A stretch of DNA of 62,277 nt, the filler included. It is 3 parts of 3 records of this genome, joined end to end, with 100 filler letters (N's around TTAATTAATTAA, not from the genome) between each part and the next. Parts side by side here need not be neighbours in the genome. Positions count along the whole stretch, not along the records: positions 29,269 to 54,925 come from DRR723986_4958; 2 more parts are not named here. The stretch is one strand, 5' to 3'. The notes beneath the pieces were generated by a model. It did not search any database. It worked only from the letters and a program-made list of their open reading frames with translations, and was not told where the DNA came from. The translations under genes were made by a program, and so were the position numbers. Positions 29,269 through 50,623 of this stretch are shown here, piece by piece (position 1 is the first letter of the stretch; each line of letters opens with the position of its first letter).

Positions 29269-29291
29269 TTCGATTCCGGTACTCGCCTCCA
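29269..29291 (+). tRNA. 3' end of a tRNA, probably tRNA-Cys (attachment site)
   Basis: TTCGATTCCGGTACTCGCCTCCA = T-loop, acceptor strand ending GCC, U73, CCA; anticodon not visible. Confidence 0.7.
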
Positions 29292-31851: not shown

Positions 31852-31961
31852 ATCAATAAATGCCTTTCGACTACATTACTGCATTATTGTTAAGCTACCT
31901 GAAATCCCGACCTTTACACCATATGCGAGCATAGTGTTTGTGATGCTCGCGCGCGTTTTGT

Positions 31962-31973
31962 GGAATATATTCC
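31962..31973. promoter_or_regulatory. Palindrome GGAATATATTCC upstream of the XRE gene, possible operator
   Basis: Perfect 12-bp palindrome; a second inverted repeat GCGAGCAT...ATGCTCGC lies at 31925-31950. Confidence 0.4.
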
Positions 31974-32009
31974 GTAGAGCGGTTCTTGTGATCTGGCCGA
32001 ATAGAGGCC

Positions 32010-32222
32010 ATGAAATTACGGGAACGAGTAGGGTTAAATGTCCGGAATCTAAGAAATTCCAGAGGATTGAGCCAAGAACAGCTAGCTTTGGCTGCGGATG
32101 TAGATCGCAGCTATATCAGCGAGATCGAACTCGCCAAAAATTCAGCATCAATCGATGTTCTGGAGCGGATCGCACTTGCTCTCGAAATCGACCCACAAGA
32201 GTTATTAAACAAGAGGGGCTGA
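32010..32222 (+). CDS. XRE/Cro-C1 family HTH regulator
   Basis: RNLRNSRGLSQEQLA..ADVDRSYISEIE. Confidence 0.9.
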   Translation: MKLRERVGLNVRNLRNSRGLSQEQLALAADVDRSYISEIELAKNSASIDVLERIALALEIDPQELLNKRG

Positions 32223-32224
32223 TA

Positions 32225-32425
32225 TTGCCCGAAATTACGAGTGTTCGCACAACGGCCGAAGCCATCGGCCGTATTTCATGCATCAAAACAGGTGAAGAAA
32301 TCGGCCTTCTGTATCGCTGGGACAACGGCGAGACGCAGGCTGCGTTGCACAATGACGGCGAGCCTATAGCGCAACACAACTCAGAGCTTACCACTGAACC
32401 AGACATTGGTGGAAAACGCAGCTAA
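32225..32425 (+). CDS. Small hypothetical protein
   Basis: TTG start with GAGGGG RBS directly after the XRE gene; GEEIGLLYRWDNGE. Confidence 0.5.
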   Translation: MPEITSVRTTAEAIGRISCIKTGEEIGLLYRWDNGETQAALHNDGEPIAQHNSELTTEPDIGGKRS

Positions 32426-32557
32426 CGGCCGGAAAGAGCCCAATTTTGATCGATGCTGCGAGATGCCCCAATGACAACAATGCGCAGAGAACGGACTTTG
32501 CAAAGTCGCGCGGACGGCCCGGAACGATCATTGGGCAATCCCTTCATGAATGTCCGG
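32399..32557. repeat. Left cargo-flanking array of inverted 9-mer boxes
   Basis: CCAGACATT-16-AACGGCCGG; AATGACAAC-12-ACGGACTTT; ACGATCATT-16-AATGTCCGG. Confidence 0.6.
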
Positions 32558-32642
32558 TATATGCCTCCCACAAACGTAACCGAGCTTTCCAGTTGCTTAG
32601 TTTCAGCGGCTATAGCAGGCTAGCTCGATGGTCAAACGTAGA

Positions 32643-33245
32643 TCACTGCCCCTTGGAGCGCAGACTTTCGATCTCTTGAGCCATGTCTTCCGTCAGTTCA
32701 TGGATAGCGCTATTTAACGATCCCCGGTGCAGTTCAACCCGCAGGGCGGTGACGTTTGCTTGAAAGCGCCGAGCAAGACGATCCGGGTCGGCATTTGATG
32801 GCAGCTCTCCCGCCTCACGGGCCTCTGTGAAGGCAGTCGCAAATTCTTCCCGCATCTGGTCGAGGTAGATCTGAGTCGCCTCAGCGATCTTCGGGTCCGT
32901 CGTCTTTGTATCCACAAGCGTCTTGGTGAGCATGCATGCCTGACGCGAGGCGTCTTCCGGGGCGAGGTCGGCGTATGATCGAAAATGCCTGGCCAGCCCA
33001 GCAAGCGGGGATGCAGCCCTTGCCATGTGATCGCGGAACCCCTGGCGGGAACGTTCGAAATACCGCTGTAGCGACAGCAGGTAGAGGTTCTCTTTGCTGT
33101 CAAAGGCGGCATAGATGCTGCCCGGCTTCAGCTTCAGGGCAGCCTCAAGATCCTTCAGCGACGTCGCGTGATAGCCCTTGCGCCAGAATAGGGTCATGGC
33201 GGCCTCAAGGGCGGCGTCCCGGTCATAGCTGGCGGTGCGGGCCAT
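32643..33245 (-). CDS. TetR/AcrR family regulator (NemR/ComR-like)
   Basis: FWRKGYHATSLKDL...GSIYAAFDSKE; ACML. Confidence 0.92.
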   Translation of the reverse strand: MARTASYDRDAALEAAMTLFWRKGYHATSLKDLEAALKLKPGSIYAAFDSKENLYLLSLQRYFERSRQGFRDHMARAASPLAGLARHFRSYADLAPEDASRQACMLTKTLVDTKTTDPKIAEATQIYLDQMREEFATAFTEAREAGELPSNADPDRLARRFQANVTALRVELHRGSLNSAIHELTEDMAQEIESLRSKGQ

Positions 33246-33248
33246 GGA

Positions 33249-33911
33249 TCAGTCCTTCATTTTGGCAAGTTGGCTCAGGATGTTGGTGTAGTTTTCCACC
33301 CCTTGTGCGCCGGTGACAAGGTGTTGGCTGTCAAAGACCACGGCGGGGACACCTTGAATACCCTGTTTGAGCCAGAACGCTTCATGGGCGCGGACCTCTT
33401 CCGCGTGGCGCTGATCTTGCAGAACGGCCAAGGCCTCAGCCCGATCCAGGCCGATCTCGTTCGCGACATCGGCCAGAACAGAGATCTCGGACAGGTTGCG
33501 CTGGTCGGTGAAATGAGCCGCGAACAGCGCCTGTTTCACGTCATGCACCCGCCCCTGTTGGCGGGCCCAGTGCAGCAACTGATGCGCGTTGAACGTGTTG
33601 TGCATCCGCATGTCATCGGCAAAACGGAACGGGAAGCCCAGATCCTCGCCAATCGCAGTCATCTGGTGGCGCGACTGTTCTGACTGCTCAGGCGTGGAGC
33701 CGTATTTTTCGATGATATGTTCGCGCAGGTTCTGCCCCTCGGGCGGCATCTGCGGGTTCAGCTCAAACGGGTGCCAGTGAAGCTCATGGGCTGTACCGGT
33801 GTCTTCCAAGGCCCGCGCTAACTGACGATATCCGATCACGCACCAAGGGCACATGACGTCCGAGACGATGTCGATACGGAGGACATCTGGTTTTTTTGCA
33901 GCCTTGTTCAT
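33249..33911 (-). CDS. DsbA/FrnE family oxidoreductase
   Basis: SDVMCPWCVIG, PFELNP, GVP. Confidence 0.9.
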   Translation of the reverse strand: MNKAAKKPDVLRIDIVSDVMCPWCVIGYRQLARALEDTGTAHELHWHPFELNPQMPPEGQNLREHIIEKYGSTPEQSEQSRHQMTAIGEDLGFPFRFADDMRMHNTFNAHQLLHWARQQGRVHDVKQALFAAHFTDQRNLSEISVLADVANEIGLDRAEALAVLQDQRHAEEVRAHEAFWLKQGIQGVPAVVFDSQHLVTGAQGVENYTNILSQLAKMKD

Positions 33912-34600
33912 GTCGCTTTCTGTTTTTGTAGATGAAGCACCCAGCCAGTTGCGGCCAGGTAGGCAAAACTCGAGAATAACAAGGGGCCGACAGTCCAAAA
34001 GCTCTTTGACACACTGAAAGTCAACGTGCCGGAAATATACCCGGCAACCCCTAGAGTAGCTAACGCAACCCCGAGGTACCCGATAAATCTTTGGTCATAG
34101 GCCCGCAGAAGGGTCAAGCCCATGAGCCCGGAAGTCAAAATGAAAAACATCGCCATTGTGCCCCCATAGTTGGTCGCGGCCAAGTGGATTAGTTCAATTA
34201 TTAGCGCAGCTGCTTCGGAACCTTGTGAAAGCTGTTCGGTGAACGCCTCTGATGCATACGGAAGCACAAGCCCATCCGCTACTGCGGCAACGAGATATAG
34301 AACAGACCCGGCTGAAAGGAATGAAAGCGTTGCAAATCCGAGACCGCGATACCCTTTGGCGGACAAGTCTTCCAGCAAAGCAAAACCACCAACCAGCATG
34401 AGTGGTACAGAGATAATCGCCATAATGTGGGACAGAATCCAACCAGATCCGCCGGCCACCATCAGAGTCCCGGCAAGATCATGCGGCGGGAAGTTCCAGA
34501 TCGTAACGCCTTCGCTTAGGTAAATCGGCGCCATACGAAGAATGTTCAGCAACCCACCGAGTACAAGTGCAATTCCGCCCACTTTATTAACAGTGTACAT
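33908..34600 (-). CDS. Hypothetical multi-pass membrane protein
   Basis: About 6 hydrophobic segments; translationally coupled to the dsbA-like gene; visibly lower GC. Confidence 0.7.
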   Translation of the reverse strand: MYTVNKVGGIALVLGGLLNILRMAPIYLSEGVTIWNFPPHDLAGTLMVAGGSGWILSHIMAIISVPLMLVGGFALLEDLSAKGYRGLGFATLSFLSAGSVLYLVAAVADGLVLPYASEAFTEQLSQGSEAAALIIELIHLAATNYGGTMAMFFILTSGLMGLTLLRAYDQRFIGYLGVALATLGVAGYISGTLTFSVSKSFWTVGPLLFSSFAYLAATGWVLHLQKQKAT

Positions 34601-34653
34601 TCATAAGTCTCCTGTGAGCGGTTGGGGCAGCATGCACCGCCCCAACATTGTGG

Positions 34654-35223
34654 TTACTCAGCCGAGGCTGCGGTTTTCTTTTCCCAAGCGAATTTCTGGA
34701 ACACTTGATCGATCGGGGTATGCGCAAAGTGGTTGGTGTAGTTCGACATCACCTTCTGAGACACGCCCAGGATCACTTCCAGGATGTTGCGGGGCTCGAA
34801 GCCCGCGTCGAGGAAGGCTTGGGTGTCGGCATCATCCACGAAACCGCGATTGCGGACGACCAGCAGGGTGAAATCACGCAGCGCTTCAAGTTTGGCTGTG
34901 GGCAGCGGAGTTTCGTTGCGCAGGGCTTCGGTGATGGCGTCGTCGACCTTCATCATCTTGGCGATGCCGGTGTGGGCGGGCACGCAATAATGGCAGTTCT
35001 GCTCGACGTTGACGGCCTGCCAGACCACGGTCTTTTCCTCATCCGTCAGGCTGGTGGCCAGGAACTGCTGATGGGCAAAATTATAGGCAGCCAGAAGCGG
35101 CGGAGCGTCGGCCATCGTGCCGTGCAGGCCGGGAATGCGGCCGTTGTTCTTCAGCGAGGTTTCCAGCAGCGGCTTGCCAGCCTCGGGCGCGGTTTCGATG
35201 GTGTGGATGGTAAAGTCAGCCAT
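34654..35223 (-). CDS. Carboxymuconolactone decarboxylase/AhpD-like peroxidase
   Basis: NCHYCVPAH (CxxCxxxH), KVMSNYTNH. Confidence 0.88.
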   Translation of the reverse strand: MADFTIHTIETAPEAGKPLLETSLKNNGRIPGLHGTMADAPPLLAAYNFAHQQFLATSLTDEEKTVVWQAVNVEQNCHYCVPAHTGIAKMMKVDDAITEALRNETPLPTAKLEALRDFTLLVVRNRGFVDDADTQAFLDAGFEPRNILEVILGVSQKVMSNYTNHFAHTPIDQVFQKFAWEKKTAASAE

Positions 35224-35259
35224 GGGATTTCCTTTCGTTCATGGAGAGTTGAGACAGGG

Positions 35260-35811
35260 TCAGCCGAACGGGCTGTAGCCCAGCCAGGTGTGGATCTGGC
35301 CGACCACCCACAGGGCGATCACGCTGGCCAGCAAGAAGGCGCCGTCCCAGATGATGGTGCCGCGAGGGCGGGCAACCCAGGGGCCTTCGGCCCGATTGGT
35401 TGCAAGTTTGGAAACCGGCACCCAAAGCAGCAGGCCACCGAACAGCAGGATCGAAGCCAGGTCGCCATTGACCAGCAAATGGGCGACAGCCCAGAGCGCG
35501 AAGCCGGTCAGCATGGGATGACGCACCCCATTCAGAATCACGCCGCGCTTGGCCGCCGGAGTGAAGAAGAAGATCGCGACCAGAACCAGCAGGTTGTTTG
35601 CATGGGTCAGGTAGGCAGGTGGGCTCCAGACATGGACGAATGGCGTTGCGCGAAAGCCGAGGGTCATCAGCGCGACCGAGATCAGTACCGCGACGGCCAC
35701 CAGCCGCCACCCGGTTGTGCCCAGGGCGGCCCGGGTGTTGGGGGCGATGCGTTTGAACAGATGCGCGGCCCACCAGAGGGCGATGCCAAAGATAAGAAGG
35801 ATCCAGCTCAT
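35260..35811 (-). CDS. NnrU family membrane protein
   Basis: RHPMLTGFALWAVAHLLVNGD. Confidence 0.85.
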   Translation of the reverse strand: MSWILLIFGIALWWAAHLFKRIAPNTRAALGTTGWRLVAVAVLISVALMTLGFRATPFVHVWSPPAYLTHANNLLVLVAIFFFTPAAKRGVILNGVRHPMLTGFALWAVAHLLVNGDLASILLFGGLLLWVPVSKLATNRAEGPWVARPRGTIIWDGAFLLASVIALWVVGQIHTWLGYSPFG

Positions 35812-35831
35812 TGGTATGTTCCGAGTGAGGG

Positions 35832-36632
35832 TTAGATTTTGGCGGGATTGATGCCCATGCGGACCATCTTCTCGCTCATGCGGATGGCGAGTTTGGCCGG
35901 GGTCAGACCCATCATGCGGATCATCAGACTGTTTCGGCGGCCGGGCACAACGGCAAAACGACGTCCAAGCGCGTTCAGACCTGCGGCCGCAACGTCAGCC
36001 GGTTCCATGCCCTTGAGCGGCATTTTCGACCAGTCCACGCCATTGTCGGCAACCATGGGCGTATTCGTCAGGCCGGGCGAAAGGACGGACACGTCAACAC
36101 CCTTTGGCCCCAGTTCACCGTGCAGTGCTGCGCCCAGGTTCAGGACATAACCCTTGGCGCCAGAGTAGTTGGCGAAATAAGGGAATGCTGCGTGCCCCGC
36201 CATCGACGAGACCAACAGGATGCCGCCTTTGCCGCGCGCGACCATGTTTCGGCTGAAGTGGTGGGTCAGTTCAAATGTGGACAGCACATTGATACGCAGG
36301 GACTGTGCCTCTTTCGCGGCATCTGTCTTTTCGAAGGCGCCATTGACCTCCATGCCCGCGCCAGGGATCAGCAGGCCGATTTCCTTGTCCACGGATTTGA
36401 CGGCTGCAATGCCTTCATCGGTGGCCAAGTCTGCCACGATGTACTTGGCCTGAATACCGTGCCTGGACTGCAGGTCAGCAACCTTGGCTTTCAACTCGGC
36501 CTCCTTGCGGGCCACGACGACCACGTTCAGCCCCTTGGCTGCGACCTGGTCGGCCAGTTCGGCTCCAATGCCCGAGGTTCCCCCGGTGATCAGAGCCCAG
36601 TCTCCGTATTTTTCTTTGAACGGTGTGGCCAT
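35832..36632 (-). CDS. Short-chain dehydrogenase/reductase
   Basis: TGGTSGIG, YSGAK, PGLTNT. Confidence 0.9.
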   Translation of the reverse strand: MATPFKEKYGDWALITGGTSGIGAELADQVAAKGLNVVVVARKEAELKAKVADLQSRHGIQAKYIVADLATDEGIAAVKSVDKEIGLLIPGAGMEVNGAFEKTDAAKEAQSLRINVLSTFELTHHFSRNMVARGKGGILLVSSMAGHAAFPYFANYSGAKGYVLNLGAALHGELGPKGVDVSVLSPGLTNTPMVADNGVDWSKMPLKGMEPADVAAAGLNALGRRFAVVPGRRNSLMIRMMGLTPAKLAIRMSEKMVRMGINPAKI

Positions 36633-36680
36633 CGTTTCGAATCCTTTATTCGTGTGGCGTTGGAGGATGAATAAATTTTC

Positions 36681-36720
36681 TTGAGTGATTGCTCAACATG
36701 ATTATTGAGCAATCACTCAA
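36681..36720. promoter_or_regulatory. Tandem palindromic TetR-type operator
   Basis: TTGAGTGATTGCTCAA-CATGATTA-TTGAGCAATCACTCAA, a 16-bp perfect inverted repeat in which each arm is itself near-palindromic. Confidence 0.75.
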
Positions 36721-36728
36721 ATGTGAGA

Positions 36729-37211
36729 TCAGCTGCGCAAAATGGCGATCAGACGTGGCCGGATCAGAGTGGTCATGACCAGCGCCATAACGAGGCCAAC
36801 AGGGAAGGATGTCACAAGTGCGTTCCACCAGAGGCCCGCGAAGATTTGGGTGTCGCCAAACCCGGCGGTGGTTCCGGCGGTGATCACCGCCATCAGGGAT
36901 TGCATGACAAAGGCCATGATGACGCCAAGCACAATGTTTTGACCCAGAGGCGAGAGTTTCGGCAGGGCTGCCTCGATTACCCGGGCCAGAAGGCCCATTA
37001 CGATCAGGGCAAAGGGCATCAGAACAAAGAGGGCTTTCAGGAACGAGATGCCCCAATCGGCAAGGAATGCGTTGCCAAACCCGGTGTTGGCCCATGTCAT
37101 GACCCCGGTCAGGATCGACGCGACCGGAGCCATGACGGAAAGGGCGATGGCGATCTTGGTCGGGGTGGAACGTTTGGTTCCGGGTGCGGTGGTGTACGTG
37201 CTGTCGGTCAT
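36729..37211 (-). CDS. DUF2798-like membrane protein
   Basis: Two internal repeats of M...T..N/T.GFG..F...W. Confidence 0.6.
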   Translation of the reverse strand: MTDSTYTTAPGTKRSTPTKIAIALSVMAPVASILTGVMTWANTGFGNAFLADWGISFLKALFVLMPFALIVMGLLARVIEAALPKLSPLGQNIVLGVIMAFVMQSLMAVITAGTTAGFGDTQIFAGLWWNALVTSFPVGLVMALVMTTLIRPRLIAILRS

Positions 37212-37239
37212 TTTGGTTCTCGCATGTTTGGGAAACGAA

Positions 37240-37259
37240 GGCCGGGCAAAAGCCCGGCC
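37240..37259 (-). terminator. GC-rich hairpin after the DoxX-like gene
   Basis: GGCCGGGC-AAAA-GCCCGGCC. Confidence 0.5.
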
Positions 37260-37298
37260 AGTTTGGGAGGTGTCGGGTTTCGGACTGCGATTGGCGCT

Positions 37299-37829
37299 TC
37301 AGGCCCAGGCCGCGATCGATGTGGTGTTGCGGCGGCGCAGCCAGGCGTTCAACATGGCCAGTCCCATAACGATCAGGGTGACAACCGGCGGCTTGGACTG
37401 GAACGGCAGCACCTCAGCCGGGACATTCGGGCGCAGGTGGACATAGACCGCCACCAGCATGATCACGACGATCACAAGGTTGGTCAGGTAGAAAACCGCA
37501 TCTGCAACCGGTCCGTGCAGTCGGCGGCCCAGGATAAAGAAACCCAACAGGATAAGGCCGACAGAGATTTCACCGGCTTGCCCGGCAAAAGCTGACAGTT
37601 TCGGGAAGGGCAGTTCGCTCAGCGCGATCTGCTGGGCGAACATGTTGGAGAACGGCATGAAGAATTTGGCCACACCGCCCAGTAGCAGGAAGGATCCCAT
37701 CACGCCCGACAGCACGCGCTCGGCGTTTTGCGTTGGTGTGCCCCCCGAACGGCGGATGACAAGCCATGCTCCCAGGGTGACGGCCAATACGATGCCAATG
37801 AGGACAAGTTCGCGGATGATCTGTTCCAT
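37299..37829 (-). CDS. DoxX-like membrane protein
   Basis: GG.AKF...GEI..GL...IMLVAVYVH. Confidence 0.6.
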   Translation of the reverse strand: MEQIIRELVLIGIVLAVTLGAWLVIRRSGGTPTQNAERVLSGVMGSFLLLGGVAKFFMPFSNMFAQQIALSELPFPKLSAFAGQAGEISVGLILLGFFILGRRLHGPVADAVFYLTNLVIVVIMLVAVYVHLRPNVPAEVLPFQSKPPVVTLIVMGLAMLNAWLRRRNTTSIAAWA

Positions 37830-37892
37830 TGTACGGTTCCTGTGATGAAGGGGGAGGCGTCCAATTCGGATTGGACGCCAGAAATCTGTGCG

Positions 37893-38528
37893 TTACGCCG
37901 CCCGGCCGCGCCAGAAGTCGACGGACAGGTAGTGCTGGATGGCGTATTGGCGGTGCGCATCGTGCTCTTCGTCGCTCATGTCGGGCGACCAGGCGTTGGG
38001 TTTGAATCCCTCATCGGGTTCCGTCCCCGCCAGGTGATTGGTGTAGTTCGACAGAACCTTGAGGCTGATCCCGACGATTACTTCCAGCATGGTCTGGCGC
38101 GTGTAGCCCGCCGCCAGGAAGCCCTCGATCTGCGCCTCAGACGGATAGCCGCGGGTGTCATTGACGACGGTGGCAAAGCTGCGCAGCGCCTCGAGCTTGG
38201 GGTCTTTCAGCGGCTTGCCGGTGCGCAGGGCCTCGATCACGTCGATATCGACCTTGGCCATCTGGGCGATGGTCGTGTGGGCGGCCATGCAATAGGTGCA
38301 TTCGTTCAGGCGGCTGATGGTCAGCAGGATGACCTGGCGCTCGGTCTCGGACAGTTTCGTTTTCTGGAAAATCTGGCTGAGGGTCACATAGGCCTCAATC
38401 ATCGCCGGCGCCTCGGCCATGTTGGCCAGCAGGTTGGGCGTGTAGCCGTATTTCTGGGTCGCCATTTCAAGGATCGGCTTCGAGCCTTCGGGGGCAGTTT
38501 CAACGGTGTGGGTGGTGAAGTTGGTCAT
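37893..38528 (-). CDS. Second CMD/AhpD-like peroxidase
   Basis: NECTYCMAAH, KVLSNYTNH; clear paralogue of 34654-35223. Confidence 0.88.
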   Translation of the reverse strand: MTNFTTHTVETAPEGSKPILEMATQKYGYTPNLLANMAEAPAMIEAYVTLSQIFQKTKLSETERQVILLTISRLNECTYCMAAHTTIAQMAKVDIDVIEALRTGKPLKDPKLEALRSFATVVNDTRGYPSEAQIEGFLAAGYTRQTMLEVIVGISLKVLSNYTNHLAGTEPDEGFKPNAWSPDMSDEEHDAHRQYAIQHYLSVDFWRGRAA

Positions 38529-38558
38529 GGGGTGGCTCCTAACATCGGCGCTTGGGTT

Positions 38559-38724
38559 TGTACCGTTCGGTTTAATCTTATATGGTAGTTTATACCGACC
38601 GTTCAAGACTGTTTTTGCGGAGAACGTTCTGAATCGCGTTAGCCTTTGATTTCACTTGATTTAAGGTCGAGAGATGCAAACAGATTCGGGCTTCACGTTT
38701 GGATTTTGTTGAATGATCGGTATA
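38559..38724. promoter_or_regulatory. Three related TetR-type operator sites in the divergent promoter
   Basis: TGTACCGTTCGGTTTA (38559), TATACCGACCGTTCAA (38591), TTGAATGATCGGTATA (38709). Confidence 0.6.
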
Positions 38725-38767
38725 AAAACCTATGTTTGGAGCGACTCAGTAGACGAAAGATCCTTCC

Positions 38768-39352
38768 ATGCCGTGGGAAAAAGCATTCGACACCAATGAG
38801 GCTTTGGAGCGGGCCGCCGACGTCTTCATGGCGAAAGGGTATGAAGCCACTTCGATCACCCATCTGACCAAAGGGATGGGGATCAACAAGGGCAGCCTCT
38901 ACAACGCTTTCGGCAGCAAGAAAGAGCTGTTCAAGGAGGTCCTGACCAAGTTCGTGCGCGACAACCAGGGGCCGCTGTTGGCGCAGCTGTCGGCGCTGGA
39001 TGACCCGATTGCCGCAATCGCGGCCGTGTTCGACGGCGTGGTCGCGCAAGGGCTGACCGATTTCGAGAAAAAGGGCAACCTGATCATCAACACGGCGCTG
39101 GAGATGCCCAACCATGATGAGGACGTGCAAGAAATCGTCCGGGGTGCGCTGGACAACCTCGAAGAGTTTTTTCTGGCCCTTGTGCAACGCGGCAAGGATC
39201 AGGGGCGCATACCCGAAACCATCGTAGCAGAGGACGCTGCCCGCTCTCTGGTTTCATTGACCGTCGGTATCCGGGTCCTGGCGCGCGGGGCTTTTGACGG
39301 CAACCAGATGCTGTCGATCAAGGCCAACGCCTTGCGCCTTGTCGGGAACTGA
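38768..39352 (+). CDS. TetR/AcrR family regulator
   Basis: FMAKGYEATSI..L..GMGINKGSLYNAFGSKKEL. Confidence 0.92.
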   Translation: MPWEKAFDTNEALERAADVFMAKGYEATSITHLTKGMGINKGSLYNAFGSKKELFKEVLTKFVRDNQGPLLAQLSALDDPIAAIAAVFDGVVAQGLTDFEKKGNLIINTALEMPNHDEDVQEIVRGALDNLEEFFLALVQRGKDQGRIPETIVAEDAARSLVSLTVGIRVLARGAFDGNQMLSIKANALRLVGN

Positions 39353-39369
39353 AGGGTGCCGGGCACATC

Positions 39370-40236
39370 TCAGGACGTGGCTGATATTTCGGTAAATTCC
39401 AGGAATGCACTGACACCTGCCGACTGGGGTTCCTTCCAGCAGCAGATCAGGTTCCGTTTCAGTTCGTGATCTTCGACCTCAAGGACATGCAGATCATCGC
39501 TGACCAGGCTTTTCGGAAAGAGGCCGACACCCAACCCCGCACGGATAAGATCCAAGGCGCGCTGATCCTGCGAGGTGCGATAGGTTACCTTGGGACGGAT
39601 GTTCTGCTGTGACAGAAGTTGTCCGAAGACCTTGCGGTATTCGCAATGCCTGCGCGCGATGAAGGGGAGGTCATGCAGCGTGGTGAGTGGAGCCGATTTC
39701 TGCTCAGCGAGGCGGTGGTCTTGCGCCGTGGCAATGACATAGTGCTCGGTCGACAGAACGTGTTTTTCCCAGGAAGGCGGCAGATTTTCGTCTCCTGTGT
39801 CGGCCAGGAACACGATATCTTGCCGTCCGTTGGCCAACTGGTTGATCAATGTCTGACTGTTGTCTTCCCAGACCTTGAGGCGGACAAAGCCATGGTTGCG
39901 CCGGAACTGCTCCAGCGTGGCGGCCAGCGAGGGTAGATCCATCGTGTCGCAGATGCCGATGGACAGCACCTCGCGCTCGGCGGTCTGTTTCAGGGCCGAA
40001 CGAACAGTCTCGCATTCACCGACGATGGTCTTGGCGCTGGCCATCAGGCGATGGCCTTCTGACGTCAGGGTGACCTGCCGGGCCAGACGGTTGAACAACT
40101 GCACCCCAAGATCATCCTCAAGCTTACCGATGGCCGTGGACAGCGCGGGTTGAGACACATGCGCCCGGGCAGCCCCTTTTGAGAAGCTGCCGGTTTCAGC
40201 CACGGCGAGGAATTGTTCGAGCTGTCTGAGGTTCAT
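39370..40236 (-). CDS. LysR family regulator
   Basis: MNLRQLEQFLAVAETGSFSKGA..AHVSQPALS. Confidence 0.93.
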   Translation of the reverse strand: MNLRQLEQFLAVAETGSFSKGAARAHVSQPALSTAIGKLEDDLGVQLFNRLARQVTLTSEGHRLMASAKTIVGECETVRSALKQTAEREVLSIGICDTMDLPSLAATLEQFRRNHGFVRLKVWEDNSQTLINQLANGRQDIVFLADTGDENLPPSWEKHVLSTEHYVIATAQDHRLAEQKSAPLTTLHDLPFIARRHCEYRKVFGQLLSQQNIRPKVTYRTSQDQRALDLIRAGLGVGLFPKSLVSDDLHVLEVEDHELKRNLICCWKEPQSAGVSAFLEFTEISATS

Positions 40237-40335
40237 GCCATACACATCATGTATATCTGAGATCAAAACTATTAATTTGTTAAATGAAAGGGCGTCGGGT
40301 AGTCAAGAGACATGGCCACCGAAAGGACACGCCCC

Positions 40336-41052
40336 ATGACCCAGACCGCCCTTGTCATTGGCGCCGGAGACAATCTCGGCGCTGCGATTGCCCGCAGGTT
40401 TGCGCGGGAAGGTCTGCATGTGGTGGCCTCTCGCCGTCGTGGAGATTTGTCGCCTCTGATTGCGGAGATCGAAGCTGCTGGCGGGCAAGCCACTGGGGTG
40501 CATTCTGATGCGCGGGATGAAGATGCGGTCAAGCAGTTGGTCGCAGAAGCCGAAGATATAGGCCCCATCGCAGCTTGTGTCTTCAACGTCGGCGGCAATG
40601 TCCGCATGCCCGTAGCCGAGACCACGACCCGAGTGTATCGCAAGGTCTGGGAGATGTGCGCGCTGGCCGGGTTCCTGGTGGGCCGAGAGGTTGCGGGGCG
40701 GATGAAAGAGCGTGGTCAGGGCACCATCCTGTTCACCGGCGCCTCGGCCTCGCTGCGTGGCAATGCCGGGTTCGCAGCCTTTGCTGGGGGCAAACACGCC
40801 TTGCGGGCGCTGGCCCAGAGCATGGCGCGCGAACTTGGCCCGGAAGGGGTGCATGTGGCCCATGTCATCATCGACGGGCTGATCGACAACCCGAACACCA
40901 AAGACCTGTTCCCTGCGATGTTCGAGGCCCGTGGTGAAGACGGCATCCTGAAGCCAGACGATATCGCCGAAGCCTATTGGCAGCTGCACGCCCAACCCCG
41001 GACCGCCTGGAGTTTCGAGATGGACCTGAGGCCCTTCAAGGAACCCTGGTGA
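40336..41052 (+). CDS. Short-chain dehydrogenase/reductase (atypical, FxxxK)
   Basis: GAGDNLG, TGASASLRG, FAGGKHALRALAQSMARE. Confidence 0.88.
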   Translation: MTQTALVIGAGDNLGAAIARRFAREGLHVVASRRRGDLSPLIAEIEAAGGQATGVHSDARDEDAVKQLVAEAEDIGPIAACVFNVGGNVRMPVAETTTRVYRKVWEMCALAGFLVGREVAGRMKERGQGTILFTGASASLRGNAGFAAFAGGKHALRALAQSMARELGPEGVHVAHVIIDGLIDNPNTKDLFPAMFEARGEDGILKPDDIAEAYWQLHAQPRTAWSFEMDLRPFKEPW

Positions 41053-41075
41053 GCCCCGGCTACAAGGAAAGACCC

Positions 41076-41666
41076 ATGACAAAATCATTCGATTTCTATT
41101 TCGACTTCGCATCGCCCTATGGCTATCTGGCCAGCCGCAAGGTGGGGGCGCTCGCCGCAGCCATCGGGCGTGATGTGAACTGGCGGCCCTTCCTGATCGG
41201 CGCGGTCTACAAGGCCCACGGTGGGGCTCCGTTGGCTCATCCCCTGAAGAGTGACTACGTTTTCAAGGATGTGTTCAGACGCGCCAAAATAGACGGCGTG
41301 GAGGGCATGCAGCGCCCTGCAAATTTCCCGGCCAGTTCGGTGCCGCCCTCACGTCTGGCCTATTGGATCGAACGCCAGGACCCTGACAAGATGGGGGCCT
41401 TTGTCGAAGCAGCCTACAAGGCCTTCTGGATTGATGGATGCGATACCGCCGATCCGAATGTTGCGTTGGATGCTGCCGAAAGCCTCGGCTTCGACCGGGA
41501 CGAGGCGCTGGCAGGTGCAGGAGATCAGGCGGTCAAGGACCGCCTGCGCGAGGTGACCGAAACAGCGCTGGAGCGCGGTGTCTTCGGCTCTCCTTTCATC
41601 ATGATCGACGATGAACCCTTCTGGGGCGGCGACCGTTTCGCCGACGTTGAGGCTCTCTATGGCTGA
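41076..41666 (+). CDS. 2-hydroxychromene-2-carboxylate isomerase / GST-kappa family
   Basis: FYFDFASPYGY, GVFGSP, EPFWGGDR. Confidence 0.88.
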   Translation: MTKSFDFYFDFASPYGYLASRKVGALAAAIGRDVNWRPFLIGAVYKAHGGAPLAHPLKSDYVFKDVFRRAKIDGVEGMQRPANFPASSVPPSRLAYWIERQDPDKMGAFVEAAYKAFWIDGCDTADPNVALDAAESLGFDRDEALAGAGDQAVKDRLREVTETALERGVFGSPFIMIDDEPFWGGDRFADVEALYG

Positions 41667-42900
41667 TACCATGACCTCCAACAGGCCGGGCAGGCTTCAC
41701 TACGCTTGGATCGTTGCAATCGCTGGCGGTGTGGCCACTTTCTGCGGTTTGGGGCTGGCGCGTTTTGCGTTCGGAATGCTCCTGCCGTCTATGTCGGCAT
41801 CGCTGGGCCTGGACTACGGCCAGAGCGGCGTGCTGGGCTTTGCCTATCTGATTGGCTATCTGGTGGCAGTTGCCCTGGTGCCCGTTGTTCTGCGCCGGTT
41901 TGGAAACCGCGTCACAACCAGCGCCAGCCTTGTCCTCATCGCGGTCACCATGCTGGGGATCGCGCTTGGGCAGGACTTCCTGCTTCTGTGGCTACTTTAT
42001 GCTTTGACCGGCGTGGGTAGCGGCGGCGTGGTCGTGCCGGTGATGAGCCTGGCATCGCATTGGTTCCACCCCTCTCACCGAGGCCTTGCGGCGGGTATCC
42101 TGATGTCTGGCCCCGGATTGGGCGTGATCATCTCCGGGTTTGTCGTGCCGAAACTCACCCCCATGGCCGGGTTCGAAACATGGCAATTGGGCTGGCTGTT
42201 GTTCGCGGCCATATCGGCGGGCGTTGCTGTTCTGGCCTTTGCCCTGTTGCGTGACCGCCCCGAAAACATTGGTGCCGATCCCTTTGGACGCGCCATGGAA
42301 GACCACACGGCCATCCGGGTTGAAATGAGCCGGAGGACCAAGCTTCGGATGCTGATCCACATGGGGCTGATCTTTGCCCTCTACGGTGCGACCTACATGG
42401 CCTATGTCACCTTCATCGTCACCAGCATGGTCGATACCTATGGCATGTCGCCCGAGGATGCCGGGCGCCTTTGGGCGGGGTTCGGGTTCCTCAGCCTGTT
42501 TTCCGGCATCCTGTTCGGATCAATCTCTGACCGATTGGGCCGCCGTGCCGGGATGGCACTGGCCTTTGGGGTTTTAGCAACCGCCTATCTTCTGGTCGGC
42601 TTCGGCGCGTGGATGCCCGGCCTTTACCTGTCGATCCTGCTGTTCGGCCTGGCCGCCTGGAGCATTCCGGTGATCATGTCCGCCTCTGCAGGGGATTATT
42701 TCGGCCCGGCAGGAGCCGCGAACGCCCTTGCCGCTCTGGTGTTCGTGTTCTCGGCTGGTCAGGCCGCCGGGCCGCTGCTTGCGGGTTATCTGGCCGACCT
42801 GACGGGGGATTTCACCCTCGGCTATGCCGCGGCAGGCCTCATCGCCCTTTTGACCATTCTCCTGATCCGGGCATTGCGGCCACCGCAGGTGTCCGGGTGA
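41659..42900 (+). CDS. MFS transporter (YbfB/YjiJ-like)
   Basis: GLARFAFG.LLP.M, SDRLGRR, ~12 TM segments. Confidence 0.88.
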   Translation: MADTMTSNRPGRLHYAWIVAIAGGVATFCGLGLARFAFGMLLPSMSASLGLDYGQSGVLGFAYLIGYLVAVALVPVVLRRFGNRVTTSASLVLIAVTMLGIALGQDFLLLWLLYALTGVGSGGVVVPVMSLASHWFHPSHRGLAAGILMSGPGLGVIISGFVVPKLTPMAGFETWQLGWLLFAAISAGVAVLAFALLRDRPENIGADPFGRAMEDHTAIRVEMSRRTKLRMLIHMGLIFALYGATYMAYVTFIVTSMVDTYGMSPEDAGRLWAGFGFLSLFSGILFGSISDRLGRRAGMALAFGVLATAYLLVGFGAWMPGLYLSILLFGLAAWSIPVIMSASAGDYFGPAGAANALAALVFVFSAGQAAGPLLAGYLADLTGDFTLGYAAAGLIALLTILLIRALRPPQVSG

Positions 42901-42938
42901 TCCGACCTATCGACATTCAACACGAAAGAGACCACCCC

Positions 42939-43619
42939 ATGCCCCTCAAAGCCATCGCCTTCGACGCCTACGGCACCTTGTTCGACGTCTATTCCGTCGG
43001 TGCACTGGCCGAAGATCTGTTCCCCGGAAAAGGGGCCCAGCTCGCCACCATCTGGCGCGACAAGCAGATCGAGTACACGCGCCTGCGCAACATGTGCGAC
43101 CAGTATGCGGACTTCTGGCAGGTAACGGGCGATGCCCTGGACTATGCCTGCGAAGCCTTGGGGCAGGATTTGACCCCGGACGCGCGCGACCGCCTGATGG
43201 GGCAATATGCCGAACTCTCGGCCTTTCCGGAAAACGCCGAACAGCTCCAACGCCTCAAGGAGGCGGGCATAGCTCTGTCAATCCTGTCGAACGGAACGCC
43301 CTGGATGCTGGATCAGGCTGTGAAGGCCTCGGGCCTTGATGGGTTTTTCGACCATGTGCTCAGCGTCGACACGGTCAAACGCTTCAAGACCGCACCAGAA
43401 GCCTATCAGATGGGGCCAGATACCTTTGACTGTGACGCCGGAGAGATCCTGTTTGTCTCTTCCAACTGCTGGGACATCTGCGGCGCCACCTGGTTCGGAT
43501 ACCGGACCATCTGGCTCAACCGATATGGCCTCCCCCTGGAACGCCTCGGCGTCGAGCCTCATCGCATCGGCGCGTCTCTGCAGGACGTGGCGGACTACGC
43601 CCTCGAGCTGAATACCTGA
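42939..43619 (+). CDS. L-2-haloacid dehalogenase (HAD type II)
   Basis: FDAYGTLFDV, WRDKQIEY, LSNG, FK, FVSSNCWD. Confidence 0.9.
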   Translation: MPLKAIAFDAYGTLFDVYSVGALAEDLFPGKGAQLATIWRDKQIEYTRLRNMCDQYADFWQVTGDALDYACEALGQDLTPDARDRLMGQYAELSAFPENAEQLQRLKEAGIALSILSNGTPWMLDQAVKASGLDGFFDHVLSVDTVKRFKTAPEAYQMGPDTFDCDAGEILFVSSNCWDICGATWFGYRTIWLNRYGLPLERLGVEPHRIGASLQDVADYALELNT

Positions 43620-43646
43620 AACAAAACCCAAACCAAGGAGAATTCC

Positions 43647-44009
43647 ATGCCCGTCATCCGCGTCGAGGTGCCCGAAGGCACCGATTATGACACCAAAACC
43701 CGTATCCGCAAAGGCGTAAAACAGGCCGTGCTCGACACGCTTGCCCCCAAGGAGATCAAGTACGACTACGTCGCCGTGCGTGAGGCATTCGGCATTCTGG
43801 GAGATGGCCTGCCGTTGGTCACCGTCGATTTGCGCCCTGGCCGGGATGCGGGTCGCAAGAAGGCTCTGACCGATGCCATCGCGGACATCCTGAAAAAAGA
43901 ACTGAATTCCGACCCTGTCGATCTCTACGTCCTCTTTCGGGAAAACCCCGCCGAGAACCACTACACCGGGGGAACGCCATTGCCAGATTGGGTTCCCGCC
44001 GATCAGTAA
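43647..44009 (+). CDS. Tautomerase superfamily protein (Pro-1, two beta-alpha-beta units)
   Basis: MPVIRV start; LRPGRDAGRKKAL..AI...L; VLFRENP.EN. Confidence 0.75.
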   Translation: MPVIRVEVPEGTDYDTKTRIRKGVKQAVLDTLAPKEIKYDYVAVREAFGILGDGLPLVTVDLRPGRDAGRKKALTDAIADILKKELNSDPVDLYVLFRENPAENHYTGGTPLPDWVPADQ

Positions 44010-44024
44010 ACATATTCACCGGAA

Positions 44025-44180
44025 GCGGCCACTTGTGCAGCTCGCAGCAAGTGACCGCTCTCCACCCTTGCTGTTTTTCGCTGCTGTCGCAAAGCGTGCA
44101 ATGCGGTCGTTCGTTTCGAGGGGGCAACGGCCGTTTTGTCCGCGTTGGCGACCTTCGCGGCAGCTTTGTTGAACGGCAGT
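44025..44180. repeat. Right cargo-flanking array of inverted 9-mer boxes
   Basis: GCGGCCACT-16-AGTGACCGC; GCGGTCGTT-14-AACGGCCGT-12-GGCGACCTT-16-AACGGCAGT. Confidence 0.6.
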
Positions 44181-44202
44181 TTTCTCTACTTAAGGACGGG
44201 TA

Positions 44203-44490
44203 TCATTTCCTCATGTCGTTCAGGAATTCCAGAACGCGCGCATAGTCTCCACTGACCACGCGCGCTTGCTCGAAGACCTCTCGCCTCTGCTGATCTAGGC
44301 AACGGAAATAATTCTCGACATCCGCAAAATAAGCCTCCGCATCGCGCTTCAACAGATCCGCATAGGCCTGCACGTCATCGGCATCGGTCGGCATCCACGG
44401 CGGCGCAGGCGGCAAACAACTGCCCGCGATCGCGGCAGATCCCCAGCTCAGAACGACCATAGCCACGCATGTTTGTTTCAAAAGCCCCAT
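44203..44490 (-). CDS. Small secreted hypothetical protein (T4SS-adjacent backbone gene)
   Basis: Signal peptide, CLPPAPP...YF.DVENYFRCLD. Confidence 0.65.
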   Translation of the reverse strand: MGLLKQTCVAMVVLSWGSAAIAGSCLPPAPPWMPTDADDVQAYADLLKRDAEAYFADVENYFRCLDQQRREVFEQARVVSGDYARVLEFLNDMRK

Positions 44491-44653: not shown

Positions 44654-44980
44654 ATGAATTTGATGCAAGACGCCCCTAATGTTGTCAGTGAAGACGGGCT
44701 GCGCACACTACTTGCCGAGGGTCATTCGGCGGATGTTGTGTGCCGGGTTACGCCCAAACGTACAGGTGCTCAGTGGTCCGGAGTTTGGACCGTGCATTGC
44801 GTCTCGCCAGATGGCGAGACGCGTCGCCTGCTCGTCACCGCGCGTAACAACATGGCGGCCCGAGAGTTTAAGACAATCAACGGCTTATCCAGCTTCCTCG
44901 CCGGGCTTGGTGTTTCGATCGTCTCGATCCCCATGTTCGAAGGCAAGATCGCCTCTCACAAGTTGGACGACGCGGGCTAA
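44654..44980 (+). CDS. KorA-like putative T4SS regulator
   Basis: LVTAR....REFKT..GL..FL..LG resembles IncN/IncW KorA-type proteins from memory; first gene of the virB operon. Confidence 0.5.
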   Translation: MNLMQDAPNVVSEDGLRTLLAEGHSADVVCRVTPKRTGAQWSGVWTVHCVSPDGETRRLLVTARNNMAAREFKTINGLSSFLAGLGVSIVSIPMFEGKIASHKLDDAG

Positions 44981-45623
44981 GCCACTTGCCGTCTTCGCAG
45001 CATTCCTAGCTGCCCCGGCCTATTCCGAAGGCTTCGTGCTTTCCATGCGAGCCGATGGCCAGCTGGAGACCAAATCCCCCCAATCAGGTTTTGCGCAAAG
45101 CTATGTCGACGGGATTGGTGAAAACCCGCCAGAGCTGATCGTTTTTGCAGTGCCTGAGCCTGAAGCTCCGCCTCCTGCACCCGCCCGCGCCGTTCCCCGC
45201 CCCGAAGTCCTGTCAGCCATTGAAAGCACGGCGCATCGTTATGGCGGGCACCCCGCGCTGCGCCGTGCTGGCCTCTCCGTTTCCGAATGGCAGGCGCTGT
45301 TCCAAGCCAATATCGAGATCGAAAGCGCCTATCGCCCAAATGCGCGCAGTTCCGCAGGCGCGATTGGCCTTGGACAGCTGATGCACGCGACGGCCGCGCA
45401 GCTCGGCGTGGATCCGCATGACTGGCAGGCCAACCTCGACGGCTCAGCCCGCTACCTTCTGATGATGCTGGCGCAGTTCGGCACGCCCGAACTCGCGCTC
45501 GCTGCCTATAACGCGGGACCAGACGCGGTCACGCGCTATGGCGGCATCCCTCCCTACCGAGAAACCCAAAATCACGTGCGCCGGGTCATGGCCGTGCGTG
45601 ACCGACTGACTGGAGCCTCCTGA
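44910..45623 (+). CDS. virB1: VirB1-like lytic transglycosylase
   Basis: IESAY, GAIGLGQLM, ALAAYNAG, ETQNHV; GTG start uncertain. Confidence 0.85.
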   Translation: MFRSSRSPCSKARSPLTSWTTRAKPLAVFAAFLAAPAYSEGFVLSMRADGQLETKSPQSGFAQSYVDGIGENPPELIVFAVPEPEAPPPAPARAVPRPEVLSAIESTAHRYGGHPALRRAGLSVSEWQALFQANIEIESAYRPNARSSAGAIGLGQLMHATAAQLGVDPHDWQANLDGSARYLLMMLAQFGTPELALAAYNAGPDAVTRYGGIPPYRETQNHVRRVMAVRDRLTGAS

Positions 45624-45913
45624 TGCACACACAACTCCGCACGATCCTGTCGCTGGCTCTGGCCAGTTTGATGATTGCCAACCCGGCCCTTGCACAGAGC
45701 ATCGATCTCTCCCCGGTGCAGAACCTTCTTCAAGGCATTGTCGACACGATCACCGGCCCCTTGGGCATTGTGATCGGCACCCTGGCCCTGATTGGCGTGT
45801 TCCTCTCCTGGCTCTTTGGCATTCTGGATTTCCGCCAGGCTCTTTGGGTGCTGGTCGCTATCGCAGGCATCGCAGCTGCGCCGACCATCGTGACCGCCAT
45901 CTGGGGCGCATAA
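45623..45913 (+). CDS. virB2: VirB2/TrbC major pilin
   Basis: Signal peptide ending PALA|Q, two hydrophobic helices, operon position. Confidence 0.85.
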   Translation: MHTQLRTILSLALASLMIANPALAQSIDLSPVQNLLQGIVDTITGPLGIVIGTLALIGVFLSWLFGILDFRQALWVLVAIAGIAAAPTIVTAIWGA

Positions 45914-45920
45914 ATCCGGC

Positions 45921-46199
45921 ATGGCAACGCAAACCCGCCTCTTCCTGGGCCTGATCCGGCCGCCAAAGCTCATCGGCTTACCAATCATGTATGCAATGGT
46001 TTGGCTCTTCGGGTTTGTGTTGCTGTTTCTTTGGGTCCAAAGCTGGCCGGTGATCATCATCGCCGCTCTGGCCTATCCCGCACTTTGGAAAGCGGCCGAT
46101 TGGGATCCTGCCTTTCTTGAGGTGATGGTCACCACCCTGCAGGAAACGCCGCCCACCCCGAACCGCAAGATCCATTCGGGGGACAGCTATGCTCCATAA
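45921..46199 (+). CDS. virB3: VirB3 family protein
   Basis: LFLGLIRPPKLIGLP...WDPAF...SYAP, overlaps the virB4 start. Confidence 0.88.
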   Translation: MATQTRLFLGLIRPPKLIGLPIMYAMVWLFGFVLLFLWVQSWPVIIIAALAYPALWKAADWDPAFLEVMVTTLQETPPTPNRKIHSGDSYAP

Positions 46200-48555: not shown

Positions 48556-48706
48556 AATTTGCGTGCTGACCCTCACCCTTTTGACTCTGACAGCCTGCGC
48601 AGAATACCGGCCGTCAGAAGCTGAATGCTTTAACTCTTTTGCCGAGGTCAGCCGCAGCAACTGCAATTTCGAGCTGCTTGGGCCGATTGGTTCGCTGCAT
48701 GAATAG
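48548..48706 (+). CDS. Small lipoprotein (VirB7-like or entry exclusion)
   Basis: MRRICVLTLTLLTLTAC lipobox, 52 aa, overlaps both neighbours. Confidence 0.65.
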   Translation: MRRICVLTLTLLTLTACAEYRPSEAECFNSFAEVSRSNCNFELLGPIGSLHE

Positions 48707-49847: not shown

Positions 49848-50623
49848 TCCGCTTTCTTTCCACCGTTGCCACCTGCGCTTTGCTGGTTGCCTCACCTCTT
49901 TCCGCTCAAGGCGTTCCCACCGTCGACACACGCAACATCGCGCAAGAAATTCGCCAGCTGCAGCAGATGCTGGAGGATTTCGGGATCCAGACCGACCAGC
50001 TCGACACGCTTCTCGAGCAGCTAGACCTGGTACAACAGCAACTCGACACGCTCAACGAGACCTACGCGGCTCTGACCGGCGCGACGGATATCATTGAAAT
50101 GGCCATGGGCGGTGATCTCGACGGGCTTCTCGATCAGGAATTCGGTGATCTCCTTGGCACCATCCGGCAGATCCAAAGCGGCGATTTCAGCGGCCTGATC
50201 GGCAATGCGGCCCCTCGGATGGAAGGGCGCATGACACAAGCCCTCGAAGATGCAGGCTTTGACCAAGACAGCCTCTCCGACATGGCCAGCAGCGGCAATC
50301 CGGGGGCGGAGCGCATCGCCAGCCAGGCGGGCACTGGGGCCGTGATGTCAGCTGCCGCCGAGAACAGCTATGACGAGGCCGCGCAATCCCTTGAACGGGT
50401 CGAGCGGCTGGTCTCGCTGATCCCGGACATGGAAACTCTCAAGGAAGCGGTCGACCACAACACCCGCGTCACAGCCGAACTGGCCATTGCCATGACACGC
50501 ATGTGGGAACTCGAAGCCATCCAGACGGTCGGCGCGGGCCAATCCGGCGTGGTGGATGCTGCCACACTGGCCGAAGAGCGCCGCTACATGGACTTCACCT
50601 TGCCAGAGCTTCGCGCGGACTGA
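49844..50623 (+). CDS. virB5: VirB5 minor pilin
   Basis: SAQGVPTVD, helical heptads, LKEAVDHNTRVTAE. Confidence 0.85.
   Translation: MIRFLSTVATCALLVASPLSAQGVPTVDTRNIAQEIRQLQQMLEDFGIQTDQLDTLLEQLDLVQQQLDTLNETYAALTGATDIIEMAMGGDLDGLLDQEFGDLLGTIRQIQSGDFSGLIGNAAPRMEGRMTQALEDAGFDQDSLSDMASSGNPGAERIASQAGTGAVMSAAAENSYDEAAQSLERVERLVSLIPDMETLKEAVDHNTRVTAELAIAMTRMWELEAIQTVGAGQSGVVDAATLAEERRYMDFTLPELRAD

Follow-up and report, generated by a model that had tools for sequence, protein, structure and literature searches.

The window analysed here, 62,277 nucleotides long, consists of three contigs joined by N44-TTAATTAATTAA-N44 linkers (29169-29268 and 54926-55025), and its stand-alone middle contig (29269-54925, 25.7 kb) carries a block of cargo genes bracketed by short repeated boxes. 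This locus raises the question whether the boxes are sites of cassette exchange, as proposed in an earlier note, which had described them as arrays of nine-letter boxes defining a cargo hotspot. Aligned with the corresponding junctions of related loci, the twelve boxes resolve into the arms and centre of a single imperfect palindrome of ~89 nt, called E in the following, and cargo is apparently exchanged at its central hexamer. We give a slightly better than even chance to the reading that E elements are the crossover sites of an uncharacterised cassette exchange system. The finding would not stand on the window sequence alone, and it is the comparison with relatives that rescues the idea.

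Architecture of the palindromic element

All twelve nine-mers were found at the coordinates given for them, and the 46-bp spacings of like-oriented boxes (32424/32470 and 44126/44172) were correct. The nine-letter consensus proposed for them fits 4 of the 12 boxes, six others deviating at one position, one at two and one at three. Instead of forming arrays, the boxes are halves of the 89-nt palindromic element; the one at 32424 is not an arm but the central motif of this larger element, and the first (32399) falls in the last codons of a 163-aa open reading frame (ORF), orf163. As derived from the aligned junctions of relatives, E is composed of a forward arm (~AAGCGGACCTTCGTGCA-n4-GCAGCGAA), 10 nt, the core GAGCCC, another 10 nt and an inverted arm (ATGCTGC-n4-TGCACGAAGGTCCGCTT). 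Its best conserved part is the asymmetric centre, GCAGCGAA...GAGCCCA...TGAC, with the spacing GCAGCGAA-n10-GAGCCCA-n3-TGAC. The 46-bp period corresponds to the interval that separates the inverted arm from the AACGGCCG motif in the centre, and it is equal in both junction copies.

The left junction carries a full imperfect palindrome (type A; coordinates of all features are collected in Table 1). Its forward, outer arm (~32397-32422) coincides with the last ten codons of orf163, followed by AACGGCCGG at 32424 in the centre, the core GAGCCC at 32436-32441 and the inverted arm at ~32452-32480. At the right junction we recognised a diverged type B element in the same orientation, made up of a degenerate cargo-side forward arm (44098-44137), the core GTCCGC (44138-44143) and a backbone half (44144-44190) in which the inverted arm GAACGGCAG is found at 44171. 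Most relatives conserve the outer half of this element, which is visible as a ~65-bp block in 43 of them. Two models were built for searches: R1, a covariance model from 18 left sites of integrative and conjugative elements (ICEs) plus 2 chromosomal copies, and R2, a sequence-only model from 22 right sites. The right element scored 70.3 bits with R2 on the identical copy in G001, which was part of the training set, and 6.1 bits in the window with R1 alone. G001 is the nearest genome and was used as a stand-in for the source genome.

Weaker, arm-only copies adjoin the gene ends at both cargo edges, and in four relatives homology with the window does not begin until 44043-44058, i.e. in the loop of the 44020-44063 hairpin. 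A third arm-only copy (52169-52210; R1 16 bits, E-value 0.012) lies outside the cargo, in the arm coding for a type IV secretion system (T4SS), between a VirB9-like gene and a virB10-matching region. The statement that such sites are missing inside the cargo held up, the best R1 match in 32563-44019 reaching 9.2 bits (E-value 0.9, filters off). In the left sites of the ICEs the arms pair in 68.6% of cells, compared with 32-43% in slid controls. Scans of both edges for terminators and promoters gave nothing above shuffled sequences.

Exchange of cargo between conserved arms

To collect related loci, we used orf95, the first gene to the right of the cargo (145 homologues, 30 of them aligned), and obtained 63 loci from species-representative genomes and 36 from metagenomes. 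These relatives retain the left arm to ~32441 and the right arm from ~44138 with 80-93% identity and carry unrelated cargo of 0.8 kb to more than 9 kb in between. Small cargos often contain a single ORF in either orientation (SUFU-like, DUF4365, AAA_15/21 ATPase, LysR, EamA plus MarR, aldehyde dehydrogenase plus regulator). Conserved backbone flanks enclosing unrelated cargo at a fixed position, as found here, define an ICE cargo hotspot; by this comparison of 63 genome loci with conserved arms and differing cargo, the block is a true hotspot, as had been claimed. Homologues of the cargo genes with 65-82% identity are scattered over 125 of 401 Roseobacteraceae genomes.

Synteny was predicted to break at the box arrays, and this is what the relatives show. 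At the left edge, the homology of 17 of 44 loci ends in 32431-32446, within ~10 nt of the central hexamer, the others ending in the variable C-terminal linker of orf163 (10), the outer half (2) or inner half (14) of E, or beyond it (1). At the right edge, 27 of 62 loci start to be homologous in 44128-44148, equally close to the hexamer; for the rest, the start lies upstream of this site in 4 loci, within the cargo-side half in 5, within the backbone half in 5 and in the diverged end of orf95 in 21.

The position can be read to the single nucleotide where whole modules have moved. The entire cargo of locus L035 (~3.1 kb) is 99.6% identical to an inverted segment within the cargo of L052, and the T4SS arms and left arms of these loci are 89.6% and 85.8% identical, respectively. 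Identity ends at ...CGGCCGGAAA/GAGCCC and ...AAAGTCCGC/A, after which each partner has a different half of E; the words shared at these joins are 6-12 nt long and hence too short for an assembly chimera. The window cargo has another context in the metagenome run X11, for which we have contig evidence. A 12,353-nt contig (depth 35.8) matches the window from 32436 to 44156 with three differences and is flanked on either side by different sequence, of which 216 and 416 nt are visible; the 30 letters preceding 32436 read as another outer half of E. In this run the ICE arms are represented by contigs of depth 3-5, which end at 32434 on the left and begin at 44135 on the right. The exchanged modules end at the arrays with single-nucleotide resolution, and the inner halves of both junctions are E halves that vary with the cargo. 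In the hybrid elements, the spacing of arm, 10 nt, core, 10 nt and arm is preserved exactly, nothing being lost at the centre.

Similar breakpoints were observed when arms are reassorted and at chromosomal copies of E. In several pairs of loci, identity in the left arm exceeds that in the T4SS arm by 5-8 points (96.5% vs. 90.0% for L039 and L043), and the better tract starts at positions 42-48 of E. Downstream of polA, the congeners G001 and G380 have a diverged outer half of E in common as far as GAGCCCA, behind which 1.0 kb and 6.85 kb of unrelated DNA follow, respectively, and a second chromosomal locus (L093) shows the same breakpoint. Taken together, the aligned loci place the exchange breakpoints at the central hexamer of E, at the single-nucleotide position given by these counts and junctions.

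A different account of these edges would be that of an ordinary variable ICE region, in which cargo is replaced by homologous recombination in the arms, E represents conserved terminators of the convergent orf163, orf95, TetR and tautomerase genes, and the breakpoints merely show where conservation ends. Both edges are indeed convergent gene ends, BLAST alignments necessarily end where the cargo differs, and the lack of enrichment of the nine-mer and of significant likeness between the two window edges (see below) suits this account as well. Double crossovers in the arms would bring arm sequence along, yet the 99.6% identical module lies between arms of only 86-90% identity, and its identity ends inside E on both sides. 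In L052 the module is moreover inverted and at another position, the same 11.7-kb cargo occurs from 32436 on outside the ICE arms in X11, and the inner junction halves are E halves changing with the cargo. We regard recombination in the arms as distinctly improbable.

Distribution of E in Roseobacteraceae

E is not confined to ICEs. The pattern of one arm matched nine times in G001 (three of them in the ICE) and the reversed control not once; R1 detected five strong copies in this genome, including one downstream of polA and one near the virB genes of plasmid C2. In 52 of 121 sampled Roseobacteraceae genomes, R1 found matches with E-values of 1e-3 or lower, from 1 to 22 per genome, these counts being lower bounds with 36 candidates scored per genome. 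Copies in unrelated genomes were found with E-values of 1e-10 to 1e-15. They lie in ordinary intergenic DNA, after polA, glnD, malK and mobA-like genes and beside LysR regulators and other routine genes. The arms of the genomic copies covary, with 81.7% of cells pairing, a value reached by none of 500 shuffles; the test used 41 rows, 8 of which are opposite-strand reads of the same copies, in an alignment fitted to the model.

Because E is dispersed in chromosomes and plasmids, it resembles a repeat of the REP or MITE (miniature inverted-repeat transposable element) type. The proposal that the boxes are cassette-exchange sites is partly supported: breakpoints fall at the centre of the element, and the sites are not specific to the ICE. 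A match to a known MITE or REP family had been named as one of the outcomes that would speak against the proposal; E looks like such a repeat and belongs to no Rfam family, as the window gave no match at gathering score, and a search of six E-bearing loci (E-value of 1 or lower) gave one unrelated sub-threshold snoRNA match. Of the features of MITEs, inverted arms are present, and 33 pairs of flanks contained no conserved duplication. A clean insertion of ~89 nt was seen at none of three loci compared between congeners, the DNA beyond E being different. Our search of part of the literature turned up nothing that describes a repeat or hotspot of this kind from roseobacters.

Other search patterns performed less well. 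A loose 10-mer expression gave 2,312 matches and was useless, a 96-position nhmmer profile of the right sites mostly recovered ICE right sites only, and a 38-position arm profile gave weak but correctly placed matches at left sites.

Two loci deserve separate mention. The virB locus on plasmid C2 of G001 (L019) has its own full E (10201-10289) with a half-site 0.87 kb downstream, both between homologues of the 213-aa gene and of orf95 and in opposite orientation to the ICE. At L101 (G112:C1:355321-355498), two copies abut head to tail with the cores GAGCCC in second and GTCCGC in first place, which may represent an emptied or never-filled pair of junctions.

Full sites, half-sites and their polarity

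R2 gave 4 to 23 matches in each of five genomes, and most of these consist of the forward arm and GTCC(C)GC only, i.e. are half-sites. The arrangement of both site types was counted for the 42 full sites listed for four genomes, which is a partial list, considering R2 matches within 12 kb. Such a match was found downstream on the same strand for 17 of the 42 full sites, upstream on the same strand for 4, and on the other strand downstream for 7 and upstream for 3. As counted in these sequences, there is a polarity of a full site followed by a half-site downstream. The 17 pairs of this type are mostly 0.7-5.5 kb apart. Eight units of full site and half-site had only their ends in common, most of them with one long ORF across much of the unit, and four of six scanned ORFs belonged to a Pfam family (OYE oxidoreductase, two MFS transporters, M24 peptidase). 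Stacking was observed at L062, where four sites in direct orientation delimit three modules; the core is GTCCGC at the site beside orf95 alone and GAGCCC at the other three, one at the left and two internal.

Polarity also bears on the main rival explanation, breakage at the palindrome centre. E would then be a dispersed repeat of structural nature, comparable to REP, ERIC or Correia elements or to a terminator, that has no dedicated recombinase; the palindrome would be cut at its hairpin or cruciform tip and rejoined illegitimately, with halves of different copies joined in either orientation. The location of E after the 3' ends of ordinary genes (polA, glnD, mobA-like) and the covariation of its arms, as in a hairpin, agree with this, as do the inverted module of L052, which a symmetric break allows, and the failure to find a recombinase. 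Conversely, precise junctions with exact geometry and no central loss are not what such breakage would leave, symmetric breakage does not predict a polarity of 17 vs. 4, 7 and 3, and the best conserved part of E is its asymmetric centre. We therefore rate breakage as unlikely, though it is the rival to be taken most seriously.

A possible mechanism of cassette exchange

If E serves for cassette exchange, the two E-derived junctions that bracket the cargo in direct orientation would correspond to attL and attR. At the left junction, the outer half (the end of orf163) would be backbone, i.e. the target, and core and inverted arm would travel with the cargo; at the right junction, a forward arm borne by the module would be joined to the target core GTCCGC and the backbone flank. 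Recombination between a module bearing one full E and a target resembling a half-site would take place at the core hexamer or just 5' of it, and modules of one gene to 11.7 kb could be inserted, stacked, swapped and sometimes inverted, both at the ICE hotspot and at many chromosomal sites. We infer that the exchange would be conservative site-specific recombination via a circular intermediate, catalysed in trans by a recombinase. An excised circle would carry the junction ...AACGGCCGTTTT/GAGCCCAATTTTG....

Among marine bacteria, roseobacters rank with the most abundant and with those that exchange genes most, and to our knowledge the packaging of their accessory genes for transfer is poorly understood. 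Going further, and at rather less than an even chance, we suggest that a new type of gene-cassette system extends over whole genomes of Roseobacteraceae, with modules of one to a dozen genes that possess one ~89-nt palindromic site each and enter half-sites on chromosomes, plasmids and the ICE hotspot by central crossover, driven by a trans-acting recombinase unrelated to integron integrases. If this is true, the hotspot would be a docking station at which chromosomal cassettes are loaded onto a conjugative vehicle. If E is a recombination site, it would explain at the nucleotide level how conjugative elements and chromosomes take up and swap single genes and operons with no linked integrase, and it would constitute a third cassette logic beside integrons and pdif modules. 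The two sequence models provide a searchable marker for mobile modules and their targets in marine metagenomes, and the claim lends itself to direct testing, the predicted junctions being defined to the base.

The nine-mer consensus is not enriched in the window (18 matches vs. 13.45 +/- 3.63 expected, with 10 of 100 shuffles reaching 18), and local clustering counts of the boxes are circular because the consensus was drawn from the same stretches. Several observations weigh against cassette exchange through E. The left and right edges are not significantly alike, since their 32 identities in 90 positions of a shared register are also reached in 78 of 1000 shuffled sequences and in 67 of 264 controls, and within the window the right site is recognisable only through relatives. 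Covariation is lacking between the arms of the left sites of the ICEs, whose pairing was attained by 325 of 500 shuffles, and RNAalifold predicts no long hairpin for these sites. The loci compared for breakpoints are kin rather than independent samples, the polarity count has the scope given above, and there is only one example of a near-identical module that has moved, taken from two metagenome bins. At a third chromosomal locus, where E is missing from G380, the break lies ~100 nt ahead of the element. Among the 401 genomes, a near-identical copy of the window cargo occurs in none besides G001, the L035 module has only relatives of 66-78% identity, and the chromosomal homologues of the TetR-DsbA genes have no adjoining E. 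None of the 63 genome and 36 metagenome loci represents an empty hotspot, the smallest cargo being 0.8 kb. The cores differ (GAGCCC and GTCCGC), which is unusual for recombinases needing an identical overlap region; a single fixed cut 5' of the hexamer would be a possible explanation. A circular form was not seen, and the four runs looked at consist of contigs that cannot show rare forms, so the missing 44137/32436 joint means nothing. Finally, no recombinase was linked to E, and the genes adjoining the hotspot belong to no recombinase family in Pfam or NCBIfam. The dedicated enzyme suggested earlier as a companion of the boxes was not found nearby, the sole tyrosine recombinase of the contig adjoining the tRNA end and scoring 19-23 bits against the NCBIfam models of XerC and integron integrases (cut-offs 220-335 bits). 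Xer-like genes lie close to E clusters in G001 and G053 and not in G015 and G112, which we took as coincidence.

With no enrichment and 8 of the 12 boxes missing the proposed consensus, the boxes might simply be chance matches of a loose nine-mer in GC-rich intergenic DNA. Such an origin is hardly credible in view of the E-values of the model in unrelated genomes, the nine matches of the one-arm pattern vs. none for its reverse in G001, and the result that R1 has no match in the other two contigs of the window. Chance is refuted for the left site and is possible only for single boxes such as those at 44147 and 32491.

Comparison with known systems

The attC sites of integron cassettes are imperfect palindromes of ~60-140 nt with R''/R' boxes (RYYYAAC...GTTRRRY) and crossover in R', and some attC sites of chromosomal arrays were first described as dispersed repeats (VCR); the cassettes are promoterless and all face one way from attI/Pc. 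E resembles attC as an imperfect palindromic site bounding mostly single-ORF modules with unrelated accessory cargo, hybrid junctions and arrays of direct sites (L062). In contrast to attC, its arms read AAGCGGACCTTCG.../...CGAAGGTCCGCTT, and its crossover would be at the palindrome centre instead of the basal R' box. E modules also differ from integron cassettes in that their ORFs face both ways, that they reach 11.7 kb, with TetR and LysR regulators of its own in the window cargo, and that the sites are spread over many loci instead of a single platform with attI and promoter. The IntI model TIGR02249 scored above its cut-off in none of five E-rich genomes. The behaviour of E thus resembles that of integron cassettes, but the three defining features, IntI, R''/R' boxes and basal crossover, appear to be missing.

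The pdif modules of Acinetobacter plasmids and other Xer-dependent modules have a 28-bp dif-like site (two 11-bp arms and a 6-bp centre) at each border, in inverted orientation. They share with E modules the lack of an own recombinase between short recombination sites, the occurrence of the same module in different replicons and either orientation, and presumably a host enzyme acting in trans. The borders of E modules are instead ~89-nt palindromes or half-sites in direct orientation, with no 28-bp 11-6-11 site, and no likeness to the dif consensus was seen, as judged from the general consensus rather than from the dif site of the host. The earlier view that the sites match neither known consensus was thereby borne out, as the architectures of both attC and dif are absent.

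As a dispersed intergenic imperfect palindrome of ~90 nt with tens of copies after gene 3' ends, covarying arms and a frequent position at borders of strain-specific DNA, E is similar to REP/BIME/REPIN, ERIC, Correia (Neisseria) and Bru-RS (Brucella) repeats. Unlike in REP/REPIN systems, the RAYT (Y1 transposase, PF01797) was present in only one of five E-rich genomes. Unlike with REP or Correia elements, the three loci compared showed no simple presence or absence of an insertion with target duplication, the breakpoints are precise and central, and full and half-sites are arranged with polarity around modules. The hotspots of SXT/R391-type ICEs likewise have a fixed position between conserved backbone genes and differing cargo, including defence-like genes (here SUFU-like, DUF4365 and AAA_15/21). 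Their borders differ from the defined repeated element with exchange at one nucleotide position described here, which also bounds modules outside ICEs.

Genomic context of the cargo block

Table 1. Position and basis of assignment of features on the middle contig, counted along the whole window.
Feature	Position	Strand	Basis
tRNA-Cys 3' end (ICE integration end)	29269..29291	+	contig start after N-linker; whole tRNA-Cys at same place in identical G001 element
Tyrosine recombinase (ICE integrase), 426 aa	29354..30634	-	Pfam Phage_integrase, E-value 2.6e-11
orf163, last gene of left arm	31934..32425	+	last ~10 codons inside outer arm of left E; C-terminal codons conserved
Left junction E, type A, full imperfect palindrome	32394..32483	+	R1 85.3 bits; site in training alignment A2
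Cargo as one exchange module between two core hexamers (putative)	32436..44137		X11 contig match and homology ends/starts in relatives
Arm-only mini E (weak) by TetR gene 3' end	32519..32562	+	R1 11.7 bits, E-value 0.19 in 25.7 kb, filters off
Cargo genes: TetR, DsbA-like, two CMD/AhpD-like, NnrU, two SDR, DUF2798, second TetR, LysR, MFS transporter, HAD hydrolase, tautomerase	32643..44009		Pfam
Arm-only mini E, hairpin just after tautomerase stop codon	44020..44063	+	R1 20.6 bits, E-value 6e-4; inverted repeat, 12-nt arms 92% complementary
Right junction element, type B, diverged	~44098..44190	+	alignment A4 of 22 right sites; same orientation as left E
orf95, small secreted protein, first gene of right (T4SS) arm	44203..44490	-	145 homologues, mostly Roseobacteraceae; invariant Cys and Pro positions
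virB-type T4SS: VirB1, B2, B3, B4, SLT, B5, B9, B11, B6 fragment	44679..54925	+	Pfam; contig end cuts genes off

Because the linkers separate the contigs, rplQ and rtcB on one side and fis-dusB-prmA-accC on the other are not the genomic context of the element. The middle contig itself comprises, in this order, the last 23 nt of a tRNA, the tyrosine integrase, three small genes (115, 213 and 163 aa), the cargo, orf95 and the virB T4SS; a tRNA scan of the window gave no match. The same element is present beside a complete tRNA-Cys in G001, with three mismatches over 29269-47141, and G001 belongs to a different species, its housekeeping DNA being 69-81% identical to the neighbouring contig. The species of G001 carries this ICE with 99.8% identity. 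As the element is nearly unchanged in a different species, its context is a recently spread ICE of Roseobacteraceae, and by gene content and this comparison the middle contig is part of a virB ICE integrated at tRNA-Cys.

The T4SS of the window is also collinear with that on the G001 plasmid, at 68-72% identity. Beyond the nearly identical part, from virB4 to the SLT gene (47142-49920), the ICE copy of G001 differs from the window at ~145 positions, then ends in IS21 (IstA/IstB) with HipA behind it, which makes the T4SS arm of G001 a truncated mosaic.

Neither Pfam nor NCBIfam contained a family for orf163, and no relatives of solved structure were found for orf213 and orf163. An Atlas search with orf163 led to Cro/C1-type helix-turn-helix proteins (score 0.89), which is a lead only. 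The C-terminal linker of orf163 is hypervariable: 10 relatives depart from the window at 32343-32356, and one contig of run X18 omits 66 nt of it (32346-32413). In the conserved block downstream of orf95 (44138-44202), substitutions among relatives fall mostly on every third base and would, on the minus strand, keep a peptide like KLPFNKAAAKVANAD, whose frame opens just after a conserved TAG and lacks an ATG, GTG or TTG start. On the unrelated first contig, two proteins of the Pfam Beta-lactamase family (PF00144) are encoded among peptidase and transporter genes (5381-6616 and 19775-21277).

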